Source: Blastocystis sp. Blastoise
Lineage: Eukaryota > Protista > Bigyra: Opalinata
Assembly (NCBI GenBank): GCA_039096225.1
Contig: JBBPEB010000005.1
Coordinates: forward strand, 992,001 to 1,056,000
Length of the DNA: 64,000 nt
Direction of reading: 5' to 3'
A program made the position numbers and the translations under genes. The notes under the pieces are model-generated. The model saw only the letters and a list, made by a program, of their open reading frames with translations, was not told where the DNA came from and did not search any database. Shown here piece after piece: positions 1 to 53,173 of the stretch; within the stretch, counting starts at the first letter, position 1, and each line of letters begins with the position of its first letter.

Positions 1-705
1 ACTATACCTACATGTATTCAAGTTGATTATCAAAATACAAGATTAACTACTAATCATTTCAATATCAATAGAGCTTTACCATTTATACCTGAATATATAT
101 TATTTTGGTTTACAAATGGTTATAGTTCAACAACTATTAGTAATATAGCTAGTCCAAATGTATGGCCAACATATCAAAGTTGTTTGATTGGTGATGTTCA
201 AATGTTCCCTCAAACTGAATTCCCTACTCAAATGTATTATCATAATCTTACTACAAAAGGTCATGTCTTCAATAATGCAGAAACTACTAGTTTATCTTGT
301 CCTAATAAGAATTTATATTGTTTATGGGCTGATAATTCAAATCCTGAAACTATTCTTAAATATGATGAATGGATTAAACATCCTATTTATATTATTCCAA
401 CAAAATCATTAATGAATATCCAATCAGATAGTGGTATTGAATTGAATTTCGATTGTAATGTTGATGTTCATGATGTTAAATATGAACATATTGATTCATC
501 CACTGTTCCTGATGGACAAACGTGTCAATGGAAAAGTTACGTTGATCCAACAGATAAAAAGACAAAATATCATTGGGAAGCTGATACTGCCTCTTATAAG
601 GTAGCTTCTCATGCTGGTATTTATAAACATACTACTACTGATCTAAGTGATAGTTCTCCTTATACCTTACATATGATTGCTGTACGTAGTGTACGTGATA
701 TTTAA
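1..705 (+). CDS. Major capsid protein-like paralog 1 (C-terminal part; 5' end outside window)
   Basis: Frame is open from base 1 (TIPTCIQ...NRALPFIPEYILFWFTN...IGDVQMFPQTEFPT...LYCLWADNSNP...WIKHPIYIIP...SGIELNF...YTLH...VRD). It is collinear with the C-terminal half of ORF 885-2108. Confidence 0.7.
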   Translation, partial: TIPTCIQVDYQNTRLTTNHFNINRALPFIPEYILFWFTNGYSSTTISNIASPNVWPTYQSCLIGDVQMFPQTEFPTQMYYHNLTTKGHVFNNAETTSLSCPNKNLYCLWADNSNPETILKYDEWIKHPIYIIPTKSLMNIQSDSGIELNFDCNVDVHDVKYEHIDSSTVPDGQTCQWKSYVDPTDKKTKYHWEADTASYKVASHAGIYKHTTTDLSDSSPYTLHMIAVRSVRDI

Positions 706-884
706 ATTTAATATTTCTTACTTACTATTCTTAACGTTAACTTGTTTAATTAATTCTATTCTATTCTATAATACAATCATTTGTTTTGTTATAAAAATTA
801 AAATTAATTAATAATTATAAAATATTATTATTTTTTTTATTTTTTATTTTGTTAAAAAGAAATATATAAACAATAATTATTAAC

Positions 885-2108
885 ATGGAAGGATTCCCAA
901 GACAATTCTTACCTTCAAAGGCAAATCAAACTATTAAACCTGTACAAATTCCTATTCTAGTTTCTACAAGTCAGGATTTATTAAATCAACCTTATCCATT
1001 TGAATTCTTATATAATTCAGTGGATAGCCCTTATATTGATTTCAGTAATTCATTCTTAGAACTGAATTTCAATATTACTGGTACTAGAGACAAAAATTCA
1101 ACATCTTCAGTTGTACAACATTCTAATATCTATAGTATTATTGATAAGATTACTACAGATCTTACATTTGTATCTCCGACGGGTCAAGATATTCTTATTA
1201 ATTATTCTGAATCTTCTATTGAATCCAGTAAAGCAAGAAAATTTGTTACTATTAAAGAATTAAGTAAAGATGAAATTGATAAATCTATGTATAGTATGAC
1301 AGAATGCTTATATAATAACACGTTGAGTAGTATTGCTGGAATGGAAATGAAAGAAAAAGCTCAAGTTATTATTCCTTTATCTCTTATTACTGGTCTTGGT
1401 ACATTTGATTGTGCTATTAAAGTAAAATCTTTGAAGATGCAATTCGTTACAAATTATTTAAAGAATCTATTTACCGGTACCACTGTAATCACTGCATTGA
1501 AATTTGATCGTGTTTATATTCATCTTCAACAAATCTATGATATTAATTTTGGTAATGATCCACGTGCTTTGATTAAATGTATTCCTAATAATTGTCAGAT
1601 ATCTGCATTCACTACACCTGTTTATTCACAAGCATCAGTATCAGGTACACCAACTCCACAACAATTCTTATCCAATAGAAGTGTTGTTTTCGTTCCTGAT
1701 TATTGTATGTTATACTTCACAAATCAAGAGAAGAGCATGATTCCTATTAAAACTGAATTATTAAAATCATGTCAATTCCAAATTGGTGGTCAAAATATCT
1801 TACCAAAGACGGATTTCCCTACTACGTATAAAACAACGAATCCATCACAAATTATTCCTAATGCTATGCTTTATAATACTTGGAGATGTAATAGTCATCC
1901 TCAATCTCCTTTAAACGGTGAAAAGTGGTATGAACAACCTATTTATATATTCCCTATTTCAAGTGTTGTTGATGTCAATACGCGTAGTGGTTGTGAAGTT
2001 AATATCTCATTATTAACTGAATATACTGGTGGAACTGTTACTGGTTCTTATACTTTATATGCTCATTTTATATTTGTTAAATTTGTTAGAGATGGTGCTA
2101 CCAATTAA
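885..2108 (+). CDS. Double jelly-roll major capsid protein-like (Polinton/PLV type), 407 aa
   Basis: Size and beta-rich pattern. Polinton-MCP-like motifs YIDFSNSFLELNFNI, SNIYSIIDKI, VIIPLSLITG, P-DYCMLYF, IGGQNILP and PIYIFP. Adjacent to a penton-like gene and the ATPase. Confidence 0.75.
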   Translation: MEGFPRQFLPSKANQTIKPVQIPILVSTSQDLLNQPYPFEFLYNSVDSPYIDFSNSFLELNFNITGTRDKNSTSSVVQHSNIYSIIDKITTDLTFVSPTGQDILINYSESSIESSKARKFVTIKELSKDEIDKSMYSMTECLYNNTLSSIAGMEMKEKAQVIIPLSLITGLGTFDCAIKVKSLKMQFVTNYLKNLFTGTTVITALKFDRVYIHLQQIYDINFGNDPRALIKCIPNNCQISAFTTPVYSQASVSGTPTPQQFLSNRSVVFVPDYCMLYFTNQEKSMIPIKTELLKSCQFQIGGQNILPKTDFPTTYKTTNPSQIIPNAMLYNTWRCNSHPQSPLNGEKWYEQPIYIFPISSVVDVNTRSGCEVNISLLTEYTGGTVTGSYTLYAHFIFVKFVRDGATN

Positions 2109-2208
2109 TTTATTTATTTGATATTTTTATTATTTGTATCAACTTTATATTATTCTAAAAAAAAATATTGTTTTGTTTATAATTTCATAATTAATTCATT
2201 TAATAAAA

Positions 2209-2880
2209 ATGACATCAATATCTCATCTAAGTAAAATTACAAGTCAAATCTGTCATGAACAATTCAATTATACACTTGATCTAGTGGGTAAAAATATAAC
2301 TCATATCAATACATTAGTGAATACAAGTGATATCATCAATATTCCAGAATTCAATATTGAATTTTATGAAAATGCTGGTAGATTTACATTTCCAGCTGGA
2401 AATTATACTTTAGAAGTTTTTTTAGATCAATTATATGAAATTGGGAAAAAAATGAAATCCTATGTTGAAGGAGAACCTTATGGTTTCAGTTATAATAAAG
2501 AAACTAAAACTTTTAAATCAAATCATTATTTTGAATGTGGTCGTAGTGCTGGACTATTTAAATACTTAGGCATCAAATCAGTATACTTTTCACCGGGTGA
2601 TACAATCGTATTTACTGATGAATATATATCCAAGAATATATCATGGTATAAGATCTATATGTTACGTGTATATTGTGATATTATTAATAAAGATAATGAT
2701 TTGATTTCTATTCCTTTATATGCTAAACAAGGATTTGATAATACATTTGCTTTAAGTGATTTATCTATTCCATGTATTGATGGTAAATATACAGATATCC
2801 AATGGGAAGTATATGATCAATTAAATAATCCAATTGATTTATCAAATACAAATCTTTATATATACTTTACAGCATCTTAA
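2209..2880 (+). CDS. Minor capsid (penton) protein-like, 223 aa
   Basis: Motifs FPAGNYTL, LFKYLGI, LRVYCDII and IQWEVYDQLNNPIDL...IYF match the pattern of Polinton/PLV single-jelly-roll minor capsid proteins. Located between the MCP and the ATPase. Confidence 0.75.
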   Translation: MTSISHLSKITSQICHEQFNYTLDLVGKNITHINTLVNTSDIINIPEFNIEFYENAGRFTFPAGNYTLEVFLDQLYEIGKKMKSYVEGEPYGFSYNKETKTFKSNHYFECGRSAGLFKYLGIKSVYFSPGDTIVFTDEYISKNISWYKIYMLRVYCDIINKDNDLISIPLYAKQGFDNTFALSDLSIPCIDGKYTDIQWEVYDQLNNPIDLSNTNLYIYFTAS

Positions 2881-2950
2881 TAAAATCATTTATTTATCAT
2901 TAACTTATCATTAATTATTTTTTTTGTTTTGTTGATAAAAATCATATAAA

Positions 2951-3988
2951 ATGGTGAATAAAATAAATCCATTAAAAGAAACACGTAAAGGATGTGGAGT
3001 TTTAGAATTCAAATATGGAAAATCACATCATAAAACATATGAATCAAAATTTATATTGATTATTGCAAGAACATTCTCAGGTAAATCTTTCTTAACTGTG
3101 AACCTCTTATGTTCTATGGATCTTAAAAATAAATATAAACAAGTCACAGTAATTTGTCCTGATGCATCCAATAAGAATGAATGTTATACATCCTTTCAAG
3201 ATATTTGTGAACATGCTGGAATTGATTATAAATGGTATGATTCTGTAGATGATAAATTTAAAAAGATTAAAACTGTTGATGAATTAGTCAATACATATAA
3301 ATTACCAGAACATAATTTTATTGTATTGGATGATATCTATCCATTATCTAGACAAACCAAACAATTGATTGTATCTATATTATCTAAAGGTCGTCATTAT
3401 AAACAGAATGCTATTATATGTCTTCAAAGTCATACAGATGTTACCAATCAATCTATATTAAGTCAAGTATCTCATTTCTTTATTAATAGTCAAATCTTAA
3501 AACGTGATCCTGGATTCTTACCAGATAAATTAAAGATTATGCCATCAAATCTAAATGAAATTCTTACAGATGAAGAATTAATGAATGATCCACATCAATT
3601 CTTTATGTTAAAACAAGGTAGTGATGATTTAACGATATGGACTAATCCTGATTGTGGTAGTAAACAGAATGTATATAAGATGGTAAAGAAAAGGAAATGG
3701 ACAGAAGAAGATAGTGAAAAAGAGAAACGAGAAGAACAAGGTGAAGTATCAGGTAGTGGATTGAAACGTCCTAATGAACATATATCTACATATGAAAAGA
3801 AAATGAAGAAGTTTTTACCTGTTGAAGAAGAAGTCTCATTGAAAGGTATTGAACGAGATGAAAAAGATAAACCTAAAGAATCCATCTTACAAATCATACA
3901 AGATCAAATCATACAAGATAGTCAACGACGCATTTTCAATCCTTATTTAAATAAAAAGCATTATTCTGGTTATCCATCTTTTCATTAA
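2951..3988 (+). CDS. A32/FtsK-HerA family viral genome-packaging ATPase
   Basis: Walker A variant ILIIARTFSGKS, Walker B FIVLDD, and the A32-type arginine-finger/Q motif SKGRHYKQNAIICLQ. Confidence 0.9.
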   Translation: MVNKINPLKETRKGCGVLEFKYGKSHHKTYESKFILIIARTFSGKSFLTVNLLCSMDLKNKYKQVTVICPDASNKNECYTSFQDICEHAGIDYKWYDSVDDKFKKIKTVDELVNTYKLPEHNFIVLDDIYPLSRQTKQLIVSILSKGRHYKQNAIICLQSHTDVTNQSILSQVSHFFINSQILKRDPGFLPDKLKIMPSNLNEILTDEELMNDPHQFFMLKQGSDDLTIWTNPDCGSKQNVYKMVKKRKWTEEDSEKEKREEQGEVSGSGLKRPNEHISTYEKKMKKFLPVEEEVSLKGIERDEKDKPKESILQIIQDQIIQDSQRRIFNPYLNKKHYSGYPSFH

Positions 3989-4040
3989 TTTTTTATATTT
4001 TAATTTATTATATAAACCATAATTATTTTATTGTTTTGTT

Positions 4041-5066
4041 ATGAGTTCAATTACAAAAAGATATTTAAAACAAAATTGTGATCCACGATTATTTGGAGGA
4101 TCACCACCAAAATCAAATAGACGTGATCTTTATCATAAACGTTATGTAAGATATGGAGGAACTGGATTTGAAGAAATTGTTAGACAACAAACTAGAGATG
4201 CTGATTGGGCTGATTTTAAAAATGGTGTCTATACTGCATTACCTATTTTAGGTACATTAGGAGCATTTGCTGGATATAATTATTATCAGAAACGTAAAGA
4301 ACAAAAACGTCAAGAAAAAGCAAAAGAAGAAAAGAAAAGACAATTTGAAGAACATATTGAAGATGCTAATAGAGATGATGAATTATATAATGATGATGCT
4401 ACTTATCAACCAAAGAGAATAACAAGAAAAATGATGGCTGATGATGATAAAGATTTTGATGATAATGTTGTTGATGAAGATGATTATGGTCAAGGTACCC
4501 ATAGAAGGCATCAGAAACATCGTAAAGAACATGGGAGTCACCGAGAAAAAGAAAAGAAAACAAGTAAATTCGTTACTCCTCAAATAAGAATTATTGCTAA
4601 GAAGTCTATTCGTTCTAGTAATGTAAAATCTAATAAGAAGAAATTACAAGATATTAAAGAACGATTACCTAAAAATGATGAGCATGTGTCTGTACGTGAT
4701 ATTGTTAATGTTGTTATCGATAAAGAATATCCTATGGATCCAAAACAAAAGCATTCTATTATTGCGAATACTGCTATTAAAACTATTAAAACGATTGTTC
4801 CTATTGTAGTGAATGCATTAAAATACTATTATCCTTCTCTTGGTATCCCTATTGATTTCGCTTATAATATGATTACTACTGATGATGATAAGAAACGTAA
4901 AGAAACTGCTGATAACTATTTTAAAAATCCTAGTGGAAGTGGTGTTACAAAAGAGAATGCTGAACGTTGTGGTGGTGCTCTTGTCAACTCTACATCCTTT
5001 GATACTACTACTAATTTAATTATTAATCTTGTTCAATTCTTCTTAAAAAAATTTCATTTAAATTAA
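4041..5066 (+). CDS. Putative virion core protein precursor
   Basis: Intact 341-aa ORF with LFGG, RYGG, YGQG, SGSG and RCGG motifs, a hydrophobic segment (ALPILGTLGAFAGYNYY), and alternating acidic and basic blocks. Function is inferred from context. Confidence 0.55.
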   Translation: MSSITKRYLKQNCDPRLFGGSPPKSNRRDLYHKRYVRYGGTGFEEIVRQQTRDADWADFKNGVYTALPILGTLGAFAGYNYYQKRKEQKRQEKAKEEKKRQFEEHIEDANRDDELYNDDATYQPKRITRKMMADDDKDFDDNVVDEDDYGQGTHRRHQKHRKEHGSHREKEKKTSKFVTPQIRIIAKKSIRSSNVKSNKKKLQDIKERLPKNDEHVSVRDIVNVVIDKEYPMDPKQKHSIIANTAIKTIKTIVPIVVNALKYYYPSLGIPIDFAYNMITTDDDKKRKETADNYFKNPSGSGVTKENAERCGGALVNSTSFDTTTNLIINLVQFFLKKFHLN

Positions 5067-5142
5067 TTATTTTAACTTTTATTATTTCATAATTAATTAT
5101 TTGTTTTGTTATATAATTATTTTTAAATTAATACAATAAATA

Positions 5143-6321
5143 ATGCAAAGTAATTTAGGAGATAGTGTAACTCTCTATGATATTTTATCAAGAAATCAGA
5201 AAAAACAATCTTGGGATCCATGGTTACCGAATTCATATATTTGTCAAGATGAACAACCTGTACAACCTTTAGCACATGATCCTAATGCACAAGGATCTAT
5301 GTATAGCTCAATGGCAGTTCAAGCATTGAGAAATCATGGTCAATCAACTGAAGATATGTTTATAGCTACTATGAATTCAGCTAAAGCTAATGGAGATACT
5401 GCAAGATACTCATCTATGTTATCTCAATGGCAAACTAATTATGGTGTACCTACTACCAGTAAGATATGGTATGATGCTAGTAATCCTAATAATTATCAAT
5501 ATGAAACGTTATTATCTTCAATAAAAGGCTTAAATGGATTGAATTCAGAAGCATATAAACAGAATAAAGAGAATTATGAATTCTATTCAAATGCTCAAAA
5601 AGATATGTATGATCAATTAAACAATATTTCATATCAAATTAAAACAAATAATGATGACATTCATGCTGAAGCAGCATCAATGAAACAAAATATGACTAAT
5701 AATTATGAAAATCTACATAAAGATAACGAATATTTGAACTCAAAGATGGATACAAATGAAAATAATCGTCAATCAGATAATAATATTACAAACTCTAAAA
5801 TGGATACATATGAAAATAATCGTAAAAAAGATGTTAACAATACAAATTCGAAGATGGATAAATATGAAAATAATCGTCATCAAGACTACAACAATACACA
5901 ATCTAGAATGGATAAATATGAAAAGAATCGTCAAAATGATACTAATAAAACAAACGCTAAGATGGATGAATATGAAAGTAACCGTAAAAAAGATGCCAAA
6001 GCATTTGAAGATAAGATGGATGAACAAGGTATGCATTATGATATTGTTGAAAGTGGCATACCATTCACAATTTATGTTAATGGTAAGAACTCAAAAGTAA
6101 TATGTAATCAGCCAGAGTTTAAGGATCAGGTATTCCTTCTTAAAGATGAAAAGATTTATGTCAGATCAGCTGAAAAGTCAGGTTATATATATAAAAAGTA
6201 CGGAACAATGCCACTTGATGAATTCATTAGCAAATATAATGAAGGCTTATTTAATGAAAATAAGGCACTTCCTGATAAAGAACATAGTGGATTAAGAAAT
6301 CATCAAAACGATGAAACTTAA
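5143..6321 (+). CDS. Viral protein with 18-aa tandem repeat coiled coil (fibre/spike candidate)
   Basis: 392-aa ORF. Five full copies plus a partial copy of SKMDxYExNRxxDxNxTN at 54-bp spacing (5740, 5794, 5848, 5902, 5956, 6010). Confidence 0.6.
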   Translation: MQSNLGDSVTLYDILSRNQKKQSWDPWLPNSYICQDEQPVQPLAHDPNAQGSMYSSMAVQALRNHGQSTEDMFIATMNSAKANGDTARYSSMLSQWQTNYGVPTTSKIWYDASNPNNYQYETLLSSIKGLNGLNSEAYKQNKENYEFYSNAQKDMYDQLNNISYQIKTNNDDIHAEAASMKQNMTNNYENLHKDNEYLNSKMDTNENNRQSDNNITNSKMDTYENNRKKDVNNTNSKMDKYENNRHQDYNNTQSRMDKYEKNRQNDTNKTNAKMDEYESNRKKDAKAFEDKMDEQGMHYDIVESGIPFTIYVNGKNSKVICNQPEFKDQVFLLKDEKIYVRSAEKSGYIYKKYGTMPLDEFISKYNEGLFNENKALPDKEHSGLRNHQNDET

Positions 6322-6443
6322 TAGACTATATTATATTTACTTATTTATGCAATATTATGTTTGCCATTTAAGTTATAATTTTGTTAATATATATTTATTT
6401 TTTTGTTTTGTTTTAAAATTCATAATTATTTTATTAAACTAAA

Positions 6444-7934
6444 ATGATACAAAGTGCTCGTTTAAATGTTTCAAATAAAGGATTAGTAGGCGTAAATCAT
6501 CGTGCTACTGGTCATGAATATCGAAATTATATTGTTCCAGGATCTATTCCTGATGGAGAAGAACGTTATCCAATTAATTATTCTATTGCTCCAAATTCAT
6601 TATATGCTGTTAAGAAAATTGAAAGTAATATGGTCAATAGAGCAACATCCAATCCATTTTTCTCCTATTTATCAGAAACCAGACAAGATATTATACAAAG
6701 TTCCTTAGAAGAATCAGAAGAAAGTGAACCAATAGATGAAGGATCTGGGTTATTACCTGATGGTAGAATTCCGAAGAATTTCACAAGAAAACTCATTTAT
6801 GCTCATGATTATGTCTTACCTTATATGAAACAAAATCATATGTCTGATTATGCTAAATATTCTAGATTATTAAATCCTCGTACAATTGATAGTGCAATTG
6901 ATTTTACTAAAAGAGATCGTGATGGTTATTTATATTCTAGAGGTGGTAATTTATTTTCTAATATTTATCACACTGTGAGTGATGTATATAATGTGTCTGA
7001 TAAATTAACTGGAGGTATTAATAACATCACTCATGGAATAAGTAATGCTGTTGATTATGGTGCAAATAAATTCAAAGATCTCAAGAATTGGTGGAGAGAT
7101 ATTAATGTTGATCCACAAGAAGGATTCAATGATATTAAAGGAAAACTTGTAAGTGATAGAAACAATTTATATGATAATTGGAAATTAACTGATGATAATG
7201 AAGCTAAGAAAAATAATAAAATATTAGCTGATAACTATTTCAGATTTGCTCATATGTCAGGTAATGATACTAAAGAACAAAGACTTAACAAAAAGGTATC
7301 TTTAGATAATCAAGCAACAACATTTCATAAAAATTATATTCCATATGCAGAAAACCCAACATTTGTTAATAAAGTTGTTAATACTGCAACAAATGTATCA
7401 AAACCTGTGTATAATGGCGTTAAGAAAGTTGCAAACTCTATTGTTAGTGGTACAAAGAACGCGTTTAATAGTTTTTCTAATTGGTGGTATGGTAAAAATC
7501 CAGAGGAAGAAATACCACAAACAGAAAATCCAATAGAAACAAATAATAATGTTATACCAACTTCTTCATCTACCCCTGATACTCTAACTCTAGAAAATAT
7601 TCATAATATTACCATAGAAGATTCAAATCCTCCAAATTTAATTCCTCTTATGAATGATCCTACTGTTCCTTTACCTGATACTGTTCCAATGTCTCAAGCA
7701 ATAACGAATAAATTCACTCCAAATATTACACCTGTAGCCCCGATTCCTAATCCAGTAGAAAATGTCACTCTTGAAAATAATAATAAACGAAATAAAAAAG
7801 AAGATGATGAATTTCAATCATTTGATGAAGATGATGGTGAGGTATTTTATGATCTCGAAGAAGGTAATGGATTACGTAGAAAAAGACGTATTTCAAAAAA
7901 TAAAAAATTAAGAAATAAACGTAGAAAACATTAG
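6444..7934 (+). CDS. Putative virion core / membrane-penetration precursor (adenovirus pVI-like organisation)
   Basis: 496 aa. EGSG, SRGG and LTGG motifs followed by amphipathic helices ending in NWW, a Pro-rich region, an acidic patch, and a C-terminal EGNG-LRRKRR basic tail. Confidence 0.55.
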   Translation: MIQSARLNVSNKGLVGVNHRATGHEYRNYIVPGSIPDGEERYPINYSIAPNSLYAVKKIESNMVNRATSNPFFSYLSETRQDIIQSSLEESEESEPIDEGSGLLPDGRIPKNFTRKLIYAHDYVLPYMKQNHMSDYAKYSRLLNPRTIDSAIDFTKRDRDGYLYSRGGNLFSNIYHTVSDVYNVSDKLTGGINNITHGISNAVDYGANKFKDLKNWWRDINVDPQEGFNDIKGKLVSDRNNLYDNWKLTDDNEAKKNNKILADNYFRFAHMSGNDTKEQRLNKKVSLDNQATTFHKNYIPYAENPTFVNKVVNTATNVSKPVYNGVKKVANSIVSGTKNAFNSFSNWWYGKNPEEEIPQTENPIETNNNVIPTSSSTPDTLTLENIHNITIEDSNPPNLIPLMNDPTVPLPDTVPMSQAITNKFTPNITPVAPIPNPVENVTLENNNKRNKKEDDEFQSFDEDDGEVFYDLEEGNGLRRKRRISKNKKLRNKRRKH

Positions 7935-7983
7935 TTAATTTTATTTTGTTTTATTTATTATTATTTTTAAAAACTAAACAATT

Positions 7984-7992
7984 TGTTTTGTT
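7984..7992 (+). terminator. TGTTTTGTT putative polyadenylation-associated motif (one of many copies)
   Basis: The same 9-mer occurs 36-83 nt after each of the seven viral + strand stop codons, and also after host and hAT genes (e.g. 25268, 40622, 41660). Confidence 0.6.
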
Positions 7993-8008: not shown

Positions 8009-8176
8009 TTAAAAATCAATAAAATTCTTGATATAATCTTCGTAATCATCCTCACTTTCAGTTTGAATAGTATCCATTTCAGAATCACTATCACTTAATT
8101 CATCAACTTCAAAGTTTCCATAAGGTTTCCAAGTACCTTGTTTATAATCTGGAGCAAATTGCTTTGGAGAATTCAT
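8009..8176 (-). CDS. Small acidic protein, 55 aa (below ORF-track cutoff)
   Basis: MNSPKQFAPDYKQGTWKPYGNFEVDELSDSDSEMDTIQTESEDDYEDYIKNFIDF*. Coding-like composition between AT-rich spacers, convergent with the structural genes. Confidence 0.65.
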   Translation of the reverse strand: MNSPKQFAPDYKQGTWKPYGNFEVDELSDSDSEMDTIQTESEDDYEDYIKNFIDF

Positions 8177-8221
8177 AATAAATAGTATAAAAATAGAAAA
8201 AATTCACAATACAATTTTATT

Positions 8222-8251
8222 GTTCTAGAATGTTCTAGAATGTTCTCGAAA
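8222..8251. promoter_or_regulatory. Perfect heat-shock-element-like array (six alternating nTTCn/nGAAn pentamers)
   Basis: gTTCt aGAAt gTTCt aGAAt gTTCt cGAAa, 46-75 bp upstream of the ATG at 8176. Confidence 0.55.
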
Positions 8252-8852
8252 ATTTTTAGTTTTCCATATCGGTCGGTCATGTTTCCAAAAGTCTCTCGTT
8301 ATAGTCGTGGTGGTGGGTACATCTTTTTACAAGACCACACCACCACCAGCTTTTCTTTCACCCACTATAAATACATACCTTGATCACTTTACTCTTTTTA
8401 TATAATTTTTTTATGATTATCATGACTTTTTATATTATTTATTGATCACTATACATACATTTTTATTTTTATATATTCCCGTGATTATTTTTATTATTTC
8501 TTTTTAGATAGAACCATCCATTTCATCTTTTCTCTATATAAAGGGAGGGTCGGGGTGTGTGTTTATTTAGCACATTCTGTGCTTCTTTTCGTATTTCTTT
8601 CTGTATTCCCGTGATTATTTTACTCACTTTACCAACGATGGAGTCATTTTCCATGAATATTCCCTGTAAAGGGGAGGGTTGGACTGTGTATTTTATTTCT
8701 TTTATGATTACTATGAGTTTCTCCTTGATCACTTTACGTTTCACGTTGGAATCGGAACACAAATAAATTAAAAATAAATAAACATGGGAAAAAATAAATA
8801 CACACACACACTACCCTACACTCCCATGGTTATTTTACTTCAGAAATGTTAT

Positions 8853-8997
8853 TAATTCTTCCGTCGAGAACAAAAAGGGGGGATGACTTCCCCGCTTATG
8901 GCTGCGCGCGTCGCGCAGACTCTATGCGGGGTTTGCATACCCCCTTCTGCAGTTCGAAGAACGGAAGAATTATTAGTTTAACGAATCAACTAATACT
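8853..8997. other. GC-rich imperfect palindrome plus small hairpin at the putative element terminus
   Basis: Stems 8853-8864/8961-8972 (12 bp perfect), 8875-8885/8936-8946, 8890-8895/8926-8931 and 8902-8908/8912-8918. Second hairpin 8971-8978/8988-8995. Confidence 0.7.
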
Positions 8998-10331
8998 ATA
9001 TAAACAATAAATAGAATGAATATATAAAATATAAAAAAAACTATAAGAATAAATATATATTTCTACTAATAAATACTATAAGACCTATATATACAAAACT
9101 ATAGATAAAAGTAAATAATTAAATTAAAAATAAATAATTATATAAAACAATACTATTTAATATATATCTGAATTAAATATATCAAATAAATTAAATAAAA
9201 TAACATAAAAATAATAATAATAAAAATATTTATATATACCTAAAAAATGAAAAGGAAGAATTTTCTTTTTTAATTAAACCACTTTTTCAAGATTCGGTAA
9301 CTACCCTAGAGTAATATAGATAGTGAATAAAGTAAAATAAATAAAAGAATAAATAAAAATAAATATATACAGAAATGAATGTCTCCCATTCTCTCACTTT
9401 TGTTTTGATTTGAATTTATTTTGATTTAAAATCGTCAACCATTAGTACATAAGTGATTTGAAGAATCTCATTCAATTACAACCTAAATAAATAAAATAGA
9501 AATTAGACAAAATTATTATATTTTATATTTATATACTTTTGAAGAGACCTGTGTGACTAAAGTGAAGGCTTGAAACTGTTAGTGACACCTATAAGTTCTA
9601 AAAATAAATAAACGATAACATAATTACTGATTAAGTATTTGTATATAAAATAATTATAAAATATTTACTAGTATAAAGGTTCACAGACTTCCTGAGATAG
9701 TTGATGCTCGAAAATAAATGAAAAGCAATCAACAAAGCTGGATAAGCTTAAAAATAAATTTTTGATTTTTTAAAGAAATAAATTTTTTTTATACATTTTT
9801 TCTTTTGTTAGTTAAAGACTTTTTTTCGACCGATTTTTTTCTTTTTTTGTCTTAAACTGAACTCAAACCCTAACCCTAACCCTAGACAAGAAAAATGGTC
9901 CACCAGTGACAATTTTCTGACATTCATAAGAATGGCAACTTTATCATAATTCACATTCAATTCTATGTTCTTTCGAGTCTGTGAATTCGTTAGTATACGT
10001 GAATAATTCAATTAAGTAAATTGCCGAACAAAATTAAAAATGATTGTCCTAGATATTGTGGATAATTTCTTGAATATGTTATAGAAAGTCTTAAATTATC
10101 AGTTAATATACAAATAAAACATCTTACTATCAGTTTCTTAGATATAAATATATAAATATAAAACAACGAATTTATATGAGTGTCCACACAACATTATACC
10201 AAGTTTATTTTTGTTTTTGTGGTATAAATTACTTTCGTCGGTATAAAAAAAATTAAAGACCGATTTTTTCGTAATTTTGGTATAAATTTATGGGGAACCT
10301 GGTATAAAAGGGAAAAAGCTGCCCACCAGTG

Positions 10332-11898
10332 TATACTTTTTTATTAGTAAATAATATTTAAAATAATTAATAAGAAATAATGTCCCAAAATACTGATGGA
10401 CAACAACCAAACACTCAGACAACTTCAGAAACGTATAACTATTTATATATACCCTAATATATATAGTAATATATATAATTAGTATTATAGATATAACAAA
10501 TAGAACAATATAAAAAAAATTAAACGTGACATATATAATAAACATATATTATATTATATATCTAGTCTACTAAAGACTCTTGCTCTTATTTCTGTCATTA
10601 CACGACTAATACACTTTCTAATAGTACCACTATCAATAGACTTCCATTCATCACTTATTCTTTGTATAAAATCATCAATTCCATTCCATCTTGTTATGTT
10701 TCTTTCAGCATTTCCTTTCCATATACTGAATACATTTTCTATCGGGTTCATATCAGGACTATAAGGAGGACCATATATTACTGGGATCTCAAATTCATTA
10801 CATATATCATTTATAAGGCCTTTTTGGTGTACCGGCGCATTATCCATATATAAGCAAATATTCATATCATCTTCAGTATAATGAGTTAGTGCAGCACGTA
10901 GAAAATTACCAAAAACAGCTCCAGTAACAGAATTACTAAATAATTCTGTGTATCCAGCTCCAGTATTACTGATGGTTGCAATTGCTGTAAGAGATAATCT
11001 TTTTGATAAATGATGATAATATATTTTCTCACCTACTTTACCCCATCCATACTGCGAGAAATTGTTAAAAGACCAGTGCACTTCATCTAAATAAATTATT
11101 CTTTTACCTTCATGTATCATATTATCTATTTCATTGTATACTTCTATTCTTCTTGTTTTGTTATCATCATTATTTGAATTTTGACCACGTTTATAAAGCT
11201 TTTTGACATTAAAAGATGCACCAACATGTTCAGCCATACGACTACTATGTAGATGTTTTGCTACAGTGGCTTTAGAACAAAAAGAAGTTGTATTACTTTC
11301 TTTCAACGATTTCAATTCTTCTTCAGCTTGTATTCTTACATCTTCAGGTACATCATAAGTTTCAGTCACCCTTTCGAAGATTGAATTAGTAGAAGTATCA
11401 GATAATACTAAGACAGCATCATTGAGAGTTAATTTTGGATTTATAATGAACATATTCTTCAGTTTTTTGGACATATTAGGTGTAATAATAGCATGCCTAC
11501 CACTCTTTCTACGTTCTTTTATTAAAGGAGTATTGTTTACTAACTTTCTTACATATCGTTTAACTATATCTAGCTTTATATCTAACTGGAGTGAATAATC
11601 TTCTGGTGTCCATCGAACACCGTGAATTGACCACAAGTCCATTAATCGTTGTTTTTCAGAATCAGGTATCTTAGTATTCTTTCTTTTCCCAGTCTCAGTA
11701 GCCAGAAACGAATCATGATCACGTTGATTAATTAAGGAAATACGAGACGAGCGTCTTGCATTACTATATATATTAGGGTATATATAAATAGTTATACGTT
11801 TCTGAAGTTGTCTGAGTGTTTGGTTGTTGTCCATCAGTATTCTGGGACATTATTTCTTATTAATTATTTTAAATATTATTTACTAATAAAAAAGTATA
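10332..11898 (-). mobile_element. Tc1/IS630-family DNA transposon with 139-bp inverted repeats
   Basis: 10332-10470 is the reverse complement of 11760-11898 (one mismatch seen). Both outer ends are TA, consistent with a TA target duplication. The repeats enclose a DDE transposase. Confidence 0.75.
10554..11850 (-). CDS. DD34E transposase (IS630/Tc1, DDE_3)
   Basis: IIYLDE, LYMDNAPVH and PPYSPDMNPIENVFS; 34 residues between the second D and the E. Probable start at 11850 with a 34-nt GT-AG intron at 11764-11797 (alternative unspliced start at 11834). Confidence 0.9.
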
Positions 11899-18070: not shown

Positions 18071-18545
18071 CTAAAATAAAATCACATTTAGATAATACAC
18101 GCATTCAAAATTAACTTTTATTAAAGTTCAAATGTATTATGAAATATATAACATACAATTAATTTAAAATGAGAAATAACTAACAAGAAAAGCGAATATG
18201 ACTCTTTTATCGTTTTTAAAATTCCCAAGGGAAATTATTTTCTTTCTATTGAATAATATTATTTTCCGTGTGACATTCTTTTCTTCTGAATTCAAATTCC
18301 TTTCGTCATAACTCTTCAAAAAGCATATACTTAATTTGTTTTAATGTCCTCAAATATTGTGCTTTTTATTTTTAAAAATTAATCACATTTACCACCAATT
18401 ACCCTAATTACTAAATCAGTTTAAACTGATTATATGTCAAATACACTATCATAGCAAAGATTTCGTCACTCTATAATTATTACTTTTAAAATCAATCAAT
18501 ATTGAATAAACCACTTTAAAATATATATATATATATACTGTTTTT

Positions 18546-20520
18546 TAGAGCGGTTCAAAAGTTGCAACAAGTTGCGACAAGTTGTGATAGTATTTAAAAA
18601 CATTTTTTCCTTGATAAATAAAACAAATTTTTAATAAAGAAAACATAAATAAAACATAAAAATACAAATTATGAATTAATTAAGAAAAAATATTAATCAA
18701 GATTAATCTCTGAAACATTACTAAAAGTAGATAAATTATCAAAAAGTTGAAAAAAAAATCATCAAGAGAATCAGATAAAAGACTATTTGAATTGAAATTT
18801 CTATCATAAACATCAGTTTCATGTTCATTTGATAATATTTCATTATCATCTATAATTGTTATTGAAGAATCATTAATTGTAGTATCTATTTCATCTTCAA
18901 TAATCATTGAATCATTTTGAATTGAAATAGTATCTATTTGTGGATTCATATAGAAAAATAAATCTCTGAACAAATTTTCATCAGAATAACCAAATTTCTT
19001 CTTTGTAAATAAAATATTCATAAAAGAGAAAGATCTTTCTACACTAACAGTAGTAGAAGGTAATTGAAGAATGAAAGTAATTATTTTAGAAATAGAAGGA
19101 ATTTGTTTAAGAATAGGAAAATATAATTTTATCATTTGTTCTTTACTTATCATATTTTGAGGAAAACATTCATTTTATTTCTTCTCATTATCTATAAAAT
19201 CTTTCAATTTTGAAACACATAATAAATAATCTTTCTTTTCTATATCTAAAAATTCAGATGAAGTGAAAGAAGGAAATGAAGAAGACATCAAGAAAGGATT
19301 TTCATTATAAAATATCATTTGTTTCTTATTCATTGTTTTGATTTCTTTCAATTTTAATAATGTATTCGTAAAACATATATAATATAAAATAATAATAAAT
19401 AATAAATATACTTTTCTTATATTCTTGAATAAATGAAGATTGAACATTTGATAAATTATTTTCTTCACATATTTCATTCACTATCATAATTATATTATCT
19501 TTTGAATTCTTCAATTCTTCTTCAATTTCATCTATCAAACTAGAAACATTACAACATTGAAAATTATCATTGGATAATAATTTTAATATTTCTTCAAACA
19601 TTATTCCACTCTTCAAGAGAATCGATATTTTGATTTGTAAAGAAGAAGATAATTGATTATCTTGAAGAATATTCAATATTTCTTTATCTTTTTCACTTAA
19701 CATATCCAATGTTTCTAAATATTCATAGAATGATTTCAAATATTTAAAATGTTTCAAAATATATCTTAATGATTTATACCAAGATATCCATCGTGTTTCT
19801 TTAAATAAGAAAAGAAAGAAGACGAAGGAAGATTATTTATCTTTAAAAAGGATAACCATATATCATTTTTCTTTCTAAAGAAACGAAATGATGAATTAAT
19901 GAGATTAATAAATGATTTAGTATTAATAAAACCATCTTTTAGTTTCTCAGCTACTAAATTAATCATATGCATAAAACATCCACAATAAATTCCATCACTA
20001 AAAATCGATTCATAATTATTACCAGCATTTCGCATAGTATTACAGTTATCAGTGTGAAACGATTTGAATTGTTTTCTTTTAATGTTCCATTCTTCTAATG
20101 TATCTTGAATGATAGAAAGAAAAATATTAGATTTTTGATTTTCCATTCGTTTCAAGTTTATTAAGTAGAAAGGTTCATTCAAATTGAAAGAATTCAATCT
20201 TCTTACGATTATTGATAAATAATTAGAACCAGCATCTGAGGTAGAAGAATCACATAGAACAGCTAGAGAACATTTATCTAAACTCATTTTTACATATTGA
20301 ATACGTTCATCATACAATTTAGGTATAATTCGTTTTTGAATAGTATTATAACATGGCATATTATTATTATTCATTTCAAATATATTTTTCAATTTCATTC
20401 TAAATTGAGGTTTCTTGAATTTATTAATAGGAATACATTCTTCTAAAAATAATTCTATTAATTTTTCAAATCTTAAATAATTCACATTAGATTCAATAAT
20501 TCTATTGTTATTATTATTAG
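18546..20520 (-). mobile_element. hAT transposon, 5'-truncated copy B
   Basis: TIR TAGAGCGGTTCAAAAGTTGC at 18546. Transposase fragments on the - strand are near-identical to copy A. Cut off at 20520 by another TIR. Confidence 0.85.
18680..20510 (-). pseudogene. hAT transposase, truncated/disrupted
   Basis: Motifs AVLCDSST, FHTDN, CFMHMINL (CxxH), TRW (in a shifted frame) and LPSTTVSVERSFS. Frameshift and in-frame stop; lacks the N-terminal zinc finger. Confidence 0.85.
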
Positions 20521-20918
20521 TAGAGCGGTTCAAAAGTTGCGATAAAAGTTGTGACAAGTTGCGACAAAAGTTGCGACAAAGTTGCGACAAGTTGTGACAA
20601 GTTGCGACACTTTTTATATCTCATTTGTGAGCCATATATTTATTATATAATAAATTTATATATATAATTATAGAGAGATTTACATGATGATTACATAAAT
20701 AATTTTTAAATAAATTAAAAATAAGTTTAATACTCTTAATAAGCGTTTTAAACACTAAAAATTGAATTTTTAAAGTCAAAATTATTCTATAAATATCGTT
20801 ATTTTAATCATTTTAACAATCTTTTAACGATTTTTAAAATATTATATTATTTTTATATTATAAGAATAATGTTATTAAATATAAAAAGTGAAAAATTGCA
20901 TGTCATAGATAGAGCGGT
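20521..20918 (-). mobile_element. Inverted right end of the non-autonomous hAT derivative
   Basis: Reverse complement of ~23533-23918, beginning with the TIR and AAGTTGCGAC subterminal repeats and ending in a 9-bp TIR stub. Confidence 0.8.
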
Positions 20919-21510
20919 TAGAGCGGTTCAAAAGTTGCGACAAATTTCACAACTTGTCGCAACTTGTCGCAATTTGTCGCAACTTTTTTAATCATGAATA
21001 ATGGCGAGAGTCCCGTAATTATTTTATTAATTTGGCAATTAAAAAAGACTTGTTTAAAAAAAGAATTCAGTGTCGCAATTTGTCACAACTTTGTCACAAC
21101 TTTTCATTTAAACATATATAGACCTATTTTACATTTATATAAAATATGATAATTTATGAAATTCATAGTGGTGAATATAATAAGCATCAAGAATTATTTA
21201 AATACTTAATTCAAACAAAGAAAAACATTAAAAATACTTTTCAAAAAATCATGAATATTTTTTTTACAGTCAAAAAAATGAAATATTCACGGGACATTAT
21301 TAATTTTCAGTCATTTTAAAATGTATAAATAATTGAAAGAAATCATCTCATTTTCATTAATTTATATTTCTATATAAATCGTTCTTTCAATATAGATTCA
21401 TTCATCTATTCATAAAGTCTTCTTTAATACTCATTTCTATCAATAAAATATCATTCTAAGAATCAAAAGAAGTATATATATGTATTCATCATTCTTAATT
21501 ATCTTTAGAT

Positions 21511-24500
21511 ATGGTTAAAAAAACAATGAAACAATCTAATAATCATAAAGTGAAAAGAAAAGAAAAGAAGAAGTCTTCATCTACTAAGAAAAGTGAGAAT
21601 GTTAGAACGAGAATCTACAAAATGAATCCAATAAGTCGTTTAACAAAAATAAAATTATCATCCAGTATGAATGAAGAAGAAAAGAAATGTTTCATATCAA
21701 AGAATAATAATCTTCGTTGTATTTATTGTAATTGTATTGTAGATCATAAAAGATTATCTTCTATTAATAAACATCTCAATACTGATATGCATATTTCTAA
21801 TATGAATTCATTCATGAAAGAAAAGTCTGCTACTGTATCTTCTGTAAAGAAAACTAATACTAAAAATAGAATTATTGAATCTAATGTGAATTATATAAGA
21901 TTTGAAAAATTAATAGAATTATTTTTAGAAGAATGTATTCCTATTAATAAATTCAAGAAACCTCAATTTAGAATGAAATTGAAAAATATATTTGAAATGA
22001 ATAATAATAATATGCCATGTTATAATACTATTCAAAAACGAATTATACCTAAATTATATGATGAACGTATTCAATATGTAAAAATGAATTTAGATAAATG
22101 TTCTCTAGCTGTTCTATGTGATTCTTCTACCTCAGATGCTGGTTCTAATTATTTATCAATAATCGTAAGAAGATTGAATTCTTTCAATTTGAATGAACCT
22201 TTCTACTTAATAAACTTGAAACGAATGGAAAATCAAAAATCTAATAATTATCTTTCTATCATTCAAGATACATTAGAAGAATGGAATATTAGAAGAAAAC
22301 AGTTTAATCGTTTCATACAGATAACTGTAATACTATGCGAATAGAGCGGTTCAAAAGTTGCGACAAATCGAGTTGCGACAAATTTCACAACTTGTCGCAA
22401 CTTGTCGCAATTTGTCGCAACTTTTTTAACCATTAATAATGGCGAGAGTACCGCGATTATTTTATTAATTTGGCAATTAAAAAAGACTTGTTTAAAAAAT
22501 GAATTCAGTGTCGCAATTTGTCACAACTTTGTCACAACTTTTCATTTAAACATATATTCAATTAATATTTTATATAATAGAATATTTCATTATATAAATA
22601 AAGTAGTAACAAATATATATACCAAATTTCATTTTATAAAAATGAAAAGATCATATGAAATGAATTAGAGTAAGAATTCAAAATATTTTGAATAATTTTT
22701 TTACAGTCAAAAATTTGATTTATTTACGGGATAAAACCATTTTTGACTCATTTTTGAAATTACATTTTTTAATCAAAATTCAAATGAATTTCAATTTTAT
22801 TTTCTTTGCATTATTTATCCATTTTCAATTGAAATCATAGTTTGTATTATTTATAGCATTTAATAATGTGAATGATTTCATTAATACATTGATTTTAGAT
22901 CTTTTTGAAATGATTTATTTTTTATCAACTCATTTTATCATCTAATTAAGCATATTATATTTATAATTGACTATTAATTATCATATAGATACATATTTAT
23001 ATCATAATGATTCATTATATGATGTTTAATGAAGAATGTTAAAAATTGAATTTTGATGAAATTCAATAATTTGAATATATATGTATTCAATATCTTATTA
23101 AAGACTCATACGAAAGAAATGAATCAATTTTTTAAATATTATATGCTTAATGAGCTCATTTTGTCTTCAATGAAGCTTTTATGACATTCAATTCTTCACT
23201 TTTTATATTTAATAACATTATTTTGATAATATAAAAATAATATCATACTTTAAAAATCGTTAAAAGAATTAAAAAATGATTAAAATAAGTATATTTATCT
23301 AATGAATTTTTCTTATGAATTTCAAAAATTTCAATTTTTAGTGTTTAAAACGCTTATTTTGTGTATTAAACTTATTTTTAATTTATTTAAAAATTATTTA
23401 TGTAATCATCATGTAAATATCTTTATAATTATATATTTAAATATATTTTATAATAAATATATGACTTACAAATGAGATATAAAAAGTGTCACAACTGTCT
23501 TAACTTGTCGCAACTTTTCTCACAACTTTTGAACCGCTCTATCTATGACATTCAATTTTTCACTTTTTATATTTAATAACATTATTCTTATAATATAAAA
23601 ATAATATAATATTTTAAAAATCGTTAAAAGATTGTTAAAATGATTAAAATAACGATATTTATAGAATAAATTTGACTTTAAAAAATCAATTTTTAGTGTT
23701 TAAAACGCTTATTAAGAGTGTTAAACTTATTTTTAATTTATTTAAAAATTATTTATGTAATCATCATGTAAATCTCTCTATAATTATATATATAAATTTA
23801 TTATATAATAAATATATGGCTTACAAATGAGATATAAAAAGTGTCGCAACTTGTCGCAACTTGTCACAACTTTGTCGCAACTTGTCGCAACTTTTGTCGC
23901 AACTTTTGAACCGCTCTAATGCATATGATTAATTTAGTAGCTGAGAAACTAAAAGATGGTTTTATTAATACTAAATCATTTATTAATCTCATTAATTCAT
24001 CATTTCGTTTCTTTAGAAAGAAAAATGATTTATGGTTATCCTTTTTAAAGATAAATAATCTTCCTTCGTCTTCTTTCTTTTCTTATTTAAAGAAACACGA
24101 TGGATATCTTGGTATAAATCATTAAGATATATTTTGAAACATTTTAAATATTTGAAATCATTCTATGAATATTTAGAAACATTGGATATGTTAAGTGAAA
24201 AAGATAAAGAAATATTGAATATTCTTCAAGATAATCAATTATCTTCTTCTTTACAAATCAAAATATCGATTCTCTTGAAGAGTGGAATAATGTTTGAAGA
24301 AATATTAAAATTATTATCCAATGATAATTTTCAATGTTGTAATGTTTCTAGTTTGATAGATGAAATTGAAGAAGAATTGAAGAATTCAAAAGATAATATA
24401 ATTATGATAGTGAATGAAATATGTGAAGAAAATAATTTATCAAATGTTCAATCTTCATTTATTCAAGAATATAAGAAAAGTATATTTATTATTTATTATT

Positions 24501-25199
24501 ATTTTATATTATATATGTTTTACGAATACATTATTAAAATTGAAAGAAATCAAAACAATGAATAAGAAACAAATGATATTTTATAATGAAAATCCTTTCT
24601 TGATGTCTTCTTCATTTCCTTCTTTCACTTCATCTGAATTTTTAGATATAGAAAAGAAAGATTATTTATTATGTGTTTCAAAATTGAAAGATTTTATAGA
24701 TAATGAGAAGAAATAAAATGAATGTTTTCCTCAAAATATGATAAGTAAAGAACAAATGATAAAATTATATTTTCCTATTCTTAAACAAATTCCTTCTATT
24801 TCTAAAATAATTACTTTCATTCTTCAATTACCTTCTACTACTGTTAGTGTAGAAAGATATTTCTCTTTTATGAATATTTTATTTACAAAGAAGAAATTTG
24901 GTTATTCTGATGAAAATTTGTTTAGAGATTTATTTTTCTATATGAATTCACAAACAGATACTATTTCAATTCAAAATGATTCAATGATTATTGAAGATGA
25001 AATAGATACTACAATTAATGATTCTTCAATAACAATTATAGATGATAATGAAATATTATCAAATGAAAATGAAAATGAAGAAAAAAATACAAATTTCAAT
25101 TCAAATAGTGTTTTATCTGATTCTCTTGATGATATTTTATCAATTTCTTTTGATAATTTATCTACTTTCAGTAATGTTTCAGAGATCAATCTTGATTAA
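21511..25199 (+). pseudogene. hAT transposase (CGGBP1-like zinc finger), disrupted
   Basis: N-terminal CIYCNCIVDHKRLSSINKHLNTDMH finger, catalytic and dimerisation motifs. Interrupted at 22342-23918, with frameshifts and a stop at 24714. Confidence 0.85.
22342..23918 (+). mobile_element. Non-autonomous hAT derivative with one left end and two tandem right ends
   Basis: TIR at 22342 and reverse TIRs ending at 23541 and 23918. The ~350-bp right-end segment is duplicated. No coding capacity. Confidence 0.85.
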
Positions 25200-25449
25200 A
25201 TTTTTTCTTAATTAATTCATAATTTGTTTTTTTATATGTTTTATTTATGTTTTCTTTATTAAAAATTTGTTTTGTTTATCAAGGAAAAAATGTTTAAAAA
25301 GTGTCGCAACTTGTTGCAACTTTTGTCGCAATTTTTGTCACAACTTTTGAACCACTCTAATTTGGTTTAAACTAATGAAAATCTATTTCGTTATTTAATC
25401 TTTTATATTAATCTAAAAATATATAATATTGCTTGAAACTAATTCAATT

Positions 25450-40208: not shown

Positions 40209-40528
40209 ATGGCTCAAGTTTATACTCTTGATGAAATCATGAATCACAATACAGAAGATGATTTATGGATTATTGCTGATCATAACGTGTATATATCACT
40301 TATTTTTCGTTCTATTTATTTTTAATTTTCCTATATATAATAAAGTATATATTTTTATATGTTTTTAGGTATGATTTAACTTCATTTGCCATGAAACACC
40401 CTGGTGGTATTGATGCTTTATTAGATTATGCTGGTGGTCAATATGATGCCATCGAAGCTTTTGAAGGTCATCCTGAAGAAGCTCAAAAGCTCTTTGAACA
40501 ATACAAAATCGGTATTGTTGACTATTAA
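40209..40528 (+). CDS. Soluble cytochrome b5-domain protein 1 (one intron)
   Basis: HNTEDDLWII...VYDLTSFAMKHPGG...DAIEAFEGH...YKIG; no TM tail. Confidence 0.92.
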
Positions 40529-41242
40529 ATTAATTTATTCTCTTATCATTCTGCTTGCTTATACTTTATAGATGAAATTATTATTTCATTTATGTTTATT
40601 CTCATCGTTAAAAGTATCAATTGTTTTGTTAAATAGAATAAAATACATATATAATACACCTTATAATAGATAATACGTACTATCATTTAAAAAATAAGTA
40701 ATAATTTGTATTTACCATAAAAAAAAACACATCATAAACATAATCTCTTTTATTTCTTTTGTTTAAAAAATAGGATTCATTCAATTGAATCTTCCGTTTG
40801 ACTGTTCTTTGCAATTGAAAAACAAATCAAATGTTACGAGACAAGAAGCAATTAAATGAGAGAAAAGTTTCTAAAAAACAGTCAAATAGAAGAGTTCCCT
40901 CTTGATATTTCCAAAAAGTTAACAATTCGAACAATTAAATGTCTATAAATTAAATATAAGCATGATTCTTTGGGATCATAAGAAAGACAAAGAAAAAGCT
41001 ACAAAACGCAACTTTTCTGATAACCGTTAAAATATTCACTTTTTCAGAGAGAGAAAAATAATAATAAAAAAAACTAAAAAGCTTATGGATACAGATGATC
41101 AGAACCTTTTGTGCAAATGCAAAGGAGAGCAGAACACAAGTGCTCAGTTTGGGTTGAATTTAACATATTGTTTTCTTCATAAATATTTTATATTTAAATA
41201 TTTAAATAGTTTTACTAATAGTTTATTAATTTTAAAGAAGTC

Positions 41243-41543: not shown

Positions 41544-42154
41544 ATACATTAAAGTAAATGCTACTTTTTTCTCTGTTTTCCATATGAAATATTGGCTTTA
41601 TTTTTTTCTTTGCGTGTGCTATAATGTCATTAAATTTAGATCATAAATACATTTATATTTGTTTTGTTTTCAAAGTCGTTTATAACATTCATTTTTTTTT
41701 TCACAAATTCATTTCTTTTATTGCATGCTTATGTATATATGAATGATGCTGATATATGTAAAAGGATATTTGAAATAGAAACATATGAATATTATGAACA
41801 AGTATATAATCAAAATAATATTTCATAGATTCCTATCAGTAAAATAGGAGCAAGAATACGTTTATGATTTCTAAAGACAAATGAAAAAGGTTTTTGCATA
41901 AATAATTAAATATGTTGTCAGCAATTATAATCATAACATGTCAATAATACATCGAGTTTTTGTTTCTCATCTATGTGTCCTGTATACAGTGAAAGTGCAA
42001 ATGAAACATTTAAAAATTAAACACTTTGAAAGATGAACAAATGAATAAATTGTGTTTATCATGATTATTTTCAAAAAGCCAAAGAAATTTTAACAGTTGT
42101 TTTTTGGAATATTTATATATAAATATTTCATTTAATTTAGTTCGTATAATTAAG

Positions 42155-49068: not shown

Positions 49069-49376
49069 GTTATCACAGGCATATATATATTTACATACTC
49101 TTTATCATGCTAACTTCTTCCTCTATTTCTTTAAAAGTATTATTTTATACTATGATCATATTTGTTTTTTATCAGTCTTTTCTTGTGCACAAATATCACC
49201 TTTGTTTTTCATCTTTTTCTTATTTATATGCATTTTATTCGTTTATATTACGTTTTCAGTCCTTTTGTTTATATGTTCTAAATCAATTCTGTTTTGTTTA
49301 TATAAAATAAATCGTAATTTCTCAACCAAAAAATACTGTTCAGTTTTTATTTAAAAAAAAAATATGAATAAAAATT

Positions 49377-49447: not shown

Positions 49448-50046
49448 ATGAAATTTATTTTCCTATCAGGATATCTAAACAACAGAATGAGTATATGCTT
49501 ATAAACGAAATAGATACCTTATAACACATTTTGAACAAAACAAATTCTAGGGCAAACAATTAATGACAAGTTTTTAACGATGGGCTCAATGATAGAGAAT
49601 ATTGTAATAATACAAGACATGAAAAGAACATAAATTAAATAGAAGACAAATGAAGCAAATGAGTTAGAGAATCTGATGAGAAGAGAAGAAGGCATCCTGA
49701 AGAATGATAGAATTGGCTTTTAAGCCATGTATAAAGAGAATATATTATATATAAAGAGAAATCTATATTCCTCAAACATGAATATAGAATAAAAAGATAA
49801 TTAAATTCACTAGTGAAGCAGTTATTATATGGATATAAATAATTAATAAATAAACGTACATTATTATTGAATATACATATATAAAGAGATAGAAAGATAT
49901 AGAATAGCAATAGAAATGGTATATACTGTTTAAATTGATTTGCGCATACAAGTATAGCAAATAATCAATGAATAACAATATAAACATAAAAATCACATAA
50001 AAATAAAAACAATAATAATAATATATATATATTAGTATATCATTTT

Positions 50047-52744
<2,698 letters not shown>

Positions 52745-53173
52745 ACGGCTTTGGTGTGACAATACTTAGTATGTTAATGATATATAAAAGCAATAAAGCT
52801 TATTTTCGTCACTAGGAAACAGAATATAGAAGTAAAGCTGCAGATAAACCACAAAAAAACACATAAAGTATTAGTTTCATAGTGACGTATCCATTTACAA
52901 AAAGAAATTCGTTTTTTGCGTTTACGGTGAAATTGACACTCCTCTCTTAAGGAGAATCTTATTTCTTTCTATTTCTTTATTTTAATAGAATAAAATATCT
53001 ATACTTTAAAACAAAACAAATCATAGTTGTTTATTTAAATATTTTAATAAATAAATCTAAATACATTGACAGATAATAGTATACAAATGTAGATGAAAAA
53101 ATAGAAAAAAGTATATATCTGCATTAAAAGAAATGGTATGTTAAAATAAATGAATTTTGTATTGTATACACTC

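Follow-up and report, generated by a model that had tools for sequence, protein, structure and literature searches.

In Blastocystis subtype 7, 96% of 2,419 poly(A) sites have the octamer UGUUUGUU four bases downstream of them, and an upstream poly(A) signal is lacking (Klimes et al., 2014, PMC4159000). A CstF-64-like protein has been proposed to bind this element (PMC4159000, PMC5608401, PMC4360255) and its mutation reduced reporter output 324-fold in the same subtype (PMC6395660). Lind et al. (2025), who call the downstream element DGE (PMC12129017), reported on the basis of genome-wide RNA-seq transcript ends that it is enriched in human but not in tortoise isolates, and they concluded that it arose after the split of the two clades (PMC10690189, PMC12129017). 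Blastocystis sp. Blastoise, which is the tortoise isolate Rus-B in their list, is among the isolates reported to lack it. A MELD virus of Blastocystis that encodes PolB and integrase has already been described (Starrett et al., 2021, PMC8502044), and among virophages Sputnik uses the hairpin poly(A) signal of mimivirus and Mavirus the late promoter of CroV (PMC6723459). In a 64,000-nucleotide stretch of the Blastoise genome (the window; contig JBBPEB010000005.1, positions 992,001 to 1,056,000), we found a nine-letter word, TGTTTTGTT, behind every forward gene of an endogenous virus. The word is a genuine feature of this sequence, and we consider it fairly likely to be the downstream element of Blastocystis in a nine-letter spelling. 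Behind each viral gene, it would make the host machinery cleave and polyadenylate the mRNA a few bases before the word.

The forward viral open reading frames (ORFs) lie within positions 1-7934, and each of the seven gaps behind them contains one sense-strand copy of TGTTTTGTT (782..790, 2169..2177, 2925..2933, 4032..4040, 5102..5110, 6404..6412, 7984..7992). The distances from stop codon to word are 76, 60, 44, 43, 35, 82, and 49 nucleotides (nt), and in the six tandem gaps the next ATG follows after 94, 31, 17, 0, 32, and 31 nt. The gaps themselves are 52-179 nt long. When the seven gaps were dinucleotide-shuffled (n = 5000), the word occurred on average in 0.07 gaps and at most in 2, and eight other words of the same spacing were each present in no more than two viral gaps. 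The viral ORFs contain no copy, and in the six tandem gaps the opposite strand has none even when one mismatch is allowed. In the window as a whole there are 14 exact matches compared with 1.18 expected, a number reached in 0 of 100 shuffles. Thirteen of them are in sense orientation downstream of a coding region (one of these is ambiguous), and the fourteenth, at 11154, lies antisense within a DDE transposase ORF. A homopolymer error, by which an octamer would have been misread as a nonamer, is unlikely since four T are present at all seven viral sites and the ORFs are intact.

These counts agree with the first-pass annotation of this DNA in most respects. Its seven viral start coordinates are all exact, its spacing of 36-83 nt equals our 35-82 nt with a counting convention one base apart, and its non-viral matches at 25268, 40622, 41660, and 53010 (reverse strand) are correct; three further matches, at 49290 (+), 49534-49542 (-), and 11154 (+), had been missed. 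The statement that every viral gene is followed by the word holds for the seven forward genes in the window (the virus continues past its left edge), while an eighth, small ORF of 55 codons on the reverse strand is followed by a one-mismatch variant.

The tandem gaps alone cannot separate an end signal from a promoter. A 3'-end role nevertheless fits the word better, as the first-pass annotation had suggested, and three lines of evidence favor it. First of all, no sense gene lies close behind three of the copies (7984, 25268, and 49290). Beyond the 7984 copy, 49 nt past the last forward viral gene, the nearest forward ATG ORF of at least 30 amino acids (aa) starts at 8240 and comprises 47 aa. 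The second of these copies (25268..25276, forward strand) is located 68 nt behind the stop codon of a disrupted copy of the hAT transposase, and a second hAT copy has TGTTTTATT at the equivalent position. The third (49290..49298, forward strand) follows a GH20 hexosaminidase gene at a distance of 381 nt, in a convergent region without a forward gene behind it. In addition, each strand has its own copy at the sole convergent viral junction. Here, a predicted acidic ORF of 55 codons (8009..8176, reverse strand), which shows G-skew on its own strand and whose exact sequence was not present in the protein collection searched, faces the last forward gene. The variant TGTTTAGTT (7972..7980, reverse strand) lies 28 nt past its stop and 3 nt from the forward copy; the corresponding shuffle frequency, calculated post hoc, ranges from 0.001 for TGTTTNGTT to 0.04 for any one mismatch. 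Finally, the sense strand switches from T-rich to A-rich across the word. With flanks of 40 nt the T-over-A skew drops at 12 of 13 sites, with flanks of 30 nt at 10 of 13, and for the six non-viral sites the drop was significant against random 3' positions (P = 0.014). A hairpin poly(A) signal, as used by Sputnik, was rejected since all seven viral junctions fold no better than shuffled sequences (z from -1.2 to +1.2).

Part of the evidence weighs against an end signal. With flanks of 20 nt the fall in skew is less marked (9/13), and at the viral sites it is confounded by A-rich leaders. Moreover, three of the six tandem copies are located 31-32 nt ahead of the next ATG. These nearly equal distances (31, 32, and 31 nt), which are followed by similar A/T tracts, would be expected if the word were a promoter or a 5'-leader element of the next viral gene, comparable with the giant-virus late promoters upstream of virophage genes. 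Mavirus and Sputnik are known examples of viruses with such shared late promoters (PMC6723459), and the small reverse ORF is preceded, at a distance of about 28 nt, by a two-mismatch form. We nevertheless regard a promoter function as unlikely: apart from the three copies without a sense gene close behind, the facing copies at the convergent junction would as promoters drive antisense RNA, and a spread of 0-94 nt to the ATG is wide. Among the host genes, the word occurs in the upstream region (300 nt) of 1 of 17, and this copy is also downstream of the preceding gene. A dual role, in which the word ends one mRNA and helps to start or process the next one in the tandem run, appears less probable still. 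The shortness of the gaps is in line with it, and so is the word at 4032, which abuts the next ATG. If this copy is an end signal, the downstream mRNA would start upstream of it and contain the signal, and thus the two transcription units must overlap at 4032-4043. The start codon touched by the word is kept in all seven aligned copies of the gene, in which the N-terminus of the protein (at 4041) is identical. Simple compaction can, however, also give such an overlap, and trans-splicing is disfavored because four of the five non-zero spacers between word and ATG are without an AG acceptor.

For the question of whether the host itself uses the word, 17 host gene ends were annotated by hand. On the sense strand, an exact TGTTTTGTT was found within 600 nt past the stop of 5 of these genes, at distances of 93-497 nt, compared with 0.25 expected from shuffles; the antisense strand of the same regions contained none. 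Two copies belong to cytochrome b5-like genes (40622..40630 and 41660..41668, forward strand, 93 and 116 nt past the respective stop) and one to an ion-channel gene (53010..53018, reverse strand, 260 nt); the copy past the hexosaminidase gene was mentioned above. The fifth (49534..49542, reverse strand) follows a host gene with an uncertain end at a distance of 497 nt and is ambiguous. Together with its shifted form, TGTTTTGTT is the top-ranked 9-mer with at least two G/C in the host 3' regions. When Markov models of order 1-5 were trained on the same host regions, P-values between 4e-6 and 0.028 were obtained. A fairer test than shuffling is the comparison with T-rich control words. Six of the seven exact non-viral copies are in sense orientation within 600 nt past a stop, and for the T-rich controls this fraction is 0.18-0.22 (P = 2e-4 to 7e-4); one of the six, at 49542, is doubtful since it overlaps a 58-codon open frame. 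For the control word TCTTTTCTT, 4 of 12 copies were located in sense after-stop regions.

Several findings limit this conclusion. Twelve of the 17 host genes lack an exact TGTTTTGTT within 600 nt, and NAT10 is the one gene among the 17 that was compared with an annotated protein. The control word TCTTTTCTT is found past 4 of the 17 host genes when 0.35 are expected, which was matched by none of 1500 dinucleotide shuffles; because this control beats the shuffles too, shuffle P-values are inflated here. The fifth-order Markov model gives P = 0.028. The host gene bodies (30,933 nt, sense strand) contain no copy of the word, but with 0.2-0.4 copies expected the power of this observation is low. 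To these points has to be added the published enrichment of the downstream element in human and not in tortoise isolates. Taken together, use of TGTTTTGTT by the host is probable but partial, with few genes behind it. The idea that the host generally employs a nine-letter variant, which the first-pass annotation had put forward, is partly supported, by the five genes with the exact word, and is weakened by the performance of the control. Contigs assembled from run X1, which is RNA only by conjecture, covered 24 of the 30 bins, in many cases at less than 95% identity. None of the 8 listed pieces extends across a motif, and poly(A) does not occur among the listed loose ends, so that these contigs are uninformative either way.

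The same observations bear on the possibility that the word marks 3' ends or termination for the virus only. It would then have come down from viruses that infect other Blastocystis lineages, or would be recognized by viral factors, and the host matches would be T-run noise. The contrast between 7/7 viral and 5/17 host genes would be explained in this way, as would the four host genes reached by TCTTTTCTT and the negative genome-wide search for the tortoise clade, and the viral proteins have close metagenomic relatives. We consider this explanation improbable for three reasons. Six of seven non-viral copies are in sense orientation after a stop compared with 4 of 12 for TCTTTTCTT, the host genes are followed by the nonamer and not by the octamer UGUUUGUU (2/17, not significant), and the visible part of the virus does not encode a transcription enzyme. 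The exact octamer is also absent from the viral gaps, and two-mismatch matches carry no information at 25% GC. An octamer at 34540 past NAT10 and TGTTTTATT past PAP2 may be variants and were left out of the counts. Three cytochrome b5-like genes are arranged in tandem (40209-42391); two of them have the exact motif and the third a two-mismatch form (TGGTTTAGTT region).

If TGTTTTGTT is a form of the downstream element, a host CstF-like complex would recognize it and cleavage would take place about 4 nt upstream of the word. This figure is carried over from subtype 7. Recognition by such a complex would imply nuclear transcription, and the integrated virus would then be transcribed by host RNA polymerase II as single-gene mRNAs with 3'-untranslated regions of about 30-80 nt. 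Nuclear transcription, which the first-pass annotation had read from the motif, is consistent with the 3'-end reading, and like the role of TGTTTTGTT as poly(A) marker it stands as an inference. At the convergent junction, the two mRNAs would end about five bases apart without overlap if each were cleaved 4 nt before its word. The tight packing of the viral genes may select the strongest form of the signal, and most host genes may use weaker forms or none.

Like UGUUUGUU, the word is GU-rich and follows the stop codon on the sense strand, and both occur in the same genus. It has one extra U, and its first eight letters deviate from the consensus by two substitutions, as many as the published definition tolerates. 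What sets it apart from UGUUUGUU is its nine letters, its occurrence in the tortoise clade, and its exact presence past 5 of 17 host genes compared with 96% of poly(A) sites in subtype 7. Unlike in the Blastocystis UGUUUGUU system, all stops of the tortoise-strain gene ends read here are DNA-encoded. The test of Lind et al. used a 7-letter core with at most 2 mismatches near annotated transcript ends. Such a test may be low-powered because the DNA has 23% GC and gene models may end far from the true cut. In the Blastocystis literature nothing relevant was found on the 9-mer, no title or abstract on transcription or polyadenylation of Blastocystis MELD/Polinton and Polinton-like viruses dealt with expression signals (most subscription papers were outside this scope), and the main text of PMC10120064 does not mention Blastocystis.

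By its modeled capsid, the element is an endogenous MELD/Polinton-like virus with a double-jelly-roll capsid protein. The model of the 407-aa ORF (885..2108, forward strand), built from an 87-sequence alignment, is beta-rich with a mean predicted local distance difference test (pLDDT) value of 72; a single-sequence model was uninformative (pLDDT only 32). Its best structural match is a MELD virus sp. protein (E = 6.7e-16), and among known structures it matched the Sputnik and PBCV-1 capsids (E about 1e-9). These matches bear out the viral nature of the genes that had been assumed initially. The preceding ORF (1..705, forward strand), whose 5' end lies beyond the window, represents the C-terminal part of a second major-capsid paralogue; it aligns to P0271-P0273 and P0278 and matched the major capsid protein (MCP) alignment in a profile search (probability 100, E = 8e-53). 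The two capsid genes are divergent tandem paralogues (window 1-2108), both with relatives on metagenome contigs of up to about 27 kb. They are followed on the forward strand by a 223-aa protein (2209..2880), for which a minor capsid function is a lead only (Atlas score 0.97; most of the matched Atlas clusters are viral, and in one of them 26% of the members carry Sputnik V18/19), and by a P-loop ATPase (2951..3988), likely a packaging ATPase (PHROG packaging family, E = 1.9e-10), whose exact class is not settled by its weak FtsK and DEAD Pfam matches. The remaining forward genes encode a 341-aa candidate protein without family (4041..5066), a 392-aa protein (5143..6321), and a 496-aa protein (6444..7934). 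The 392-aa ORF contains five 54-nt (18-residue) repeats at 5635-5995, possibly a fiber or coiled coil. As in the Blastocystis MELD virus (PMC8502044), a Blastocystis host, a divergent double-jelly-roll capsid protein, and a P-loop ATPase are present. In contrast to that virus, there are two tandem MCP paralogues here, and PolB and integrase, if present, lie outside the window; section 3.4 of its published account describes no expression signals.

The capsid cluster contains 9 sequences and 18 accessions are listed beyond the window's own, all from one Blastocystis assembly. Two neighboring viral ORFs belong to clusters of 18 and 15 members with adjacent locus tags. These many clustered copies in one assembly indicate that the virus is integrated as numerous intact copies. 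The window holds its right-hand part, and its left end and replication genes lie outside. The host is Blastocystis, as proposed before, since a long exon of NAT10 matches a Blastocystis sp. Blastoise protein with 100% identity. The view of a genuine host-virus pair is supported insofar as contig context and copy number show integration, but the motif itself is no proof of it. Long co-evolution, which had also been claimed, does not follow: the ATPase domain shares 86-89% identity with four metagenomic clusters (77-80% for the whole protein), whereas the average protein identity between tortoise and human isolates is 40-42% (Lind et al.), so that the virus may have moved between hosts recently. 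One ATPase relative was found on 134 contigs. DNA of related viruses was not found in the viral, metagenome and genome contig or phage collections searched. Judged by its sequence relatives, the virus appears to belong to a widespread, little-described family. To the right of its genes, a non-coding, relatively GC-rich region (up to 46%) with short repeats extends over about 8180-9000 and is probably the right terminal repeat. The right end of the virus seems to be near 8990-9070, and the left end is needed to fix its position.

The rest of the window contains other elements. Three telomere-like CCCTAA units lie inside the contig at 9866-9884, shortly before a DDE transposon. This IS630/Tc1-like element (10332-11898) has an intact 426-aa DDE_3 transposase and 139-nt inverted repeats, which are 99% complementary and cover the first codons of the transposase gene. 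A copy of TGTTTGGTT 140 nt past this gene was rejected as a candidate because the inverted repeat duplicates coding sequence there. A cluster of hAT copies occupies about 18500-25360; they are broken and nested, lie in both orientations, and have subterminal repeats of the GTTGCGACAA type. Between 34000 and 64000, the host introns are packed with long AT and AAT microsatellites (up to about 500 nt), in contrast to the 30-nt introns of human subtypes, and three tRNA genes (Val, Gln, Gly) are present.

Nuclear DNA viruses such as adenovirus use the host AAUAAA. Our virus would likewise adopt the 3'-end code of its host, and here this code would be a lineage-specific downstream element. As in virophages, one repeated intergenic signal hints at whose machinery transcribes the virus; unlike in virophages, the word resembles the signal of the cell and the junctions lack a hairpin. 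A nuclear virus that shares the poly(A) code of its host is ordinary in itself, and the interest of our finding lies mainly in its challenge to the published absence. Tentatively, we suggest that a downstream poly(A) element is ancestral to the genus and survives in the tortoise clade as UGUUUUGUU, where the published search would have missed it and a virus that keeps the perfect form exposes it. This would overturn the published claim that the cleavage signal postdates the split of the tortoise and human clades and would reorder the steps toward genes without stop codons, the signal having preceded their loss. The locus also offers sequence evidence, which is rare, on whether Polinton-like viruses are transcribed in the cell nucleus or in a giant-virus factory. 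If the suggestion is true, transcription of gut MELD viruses would take place in the nucleus and require no helper giant virus, and the spelling of the word in each of them would reveal which Blastocystis lineage it infects.

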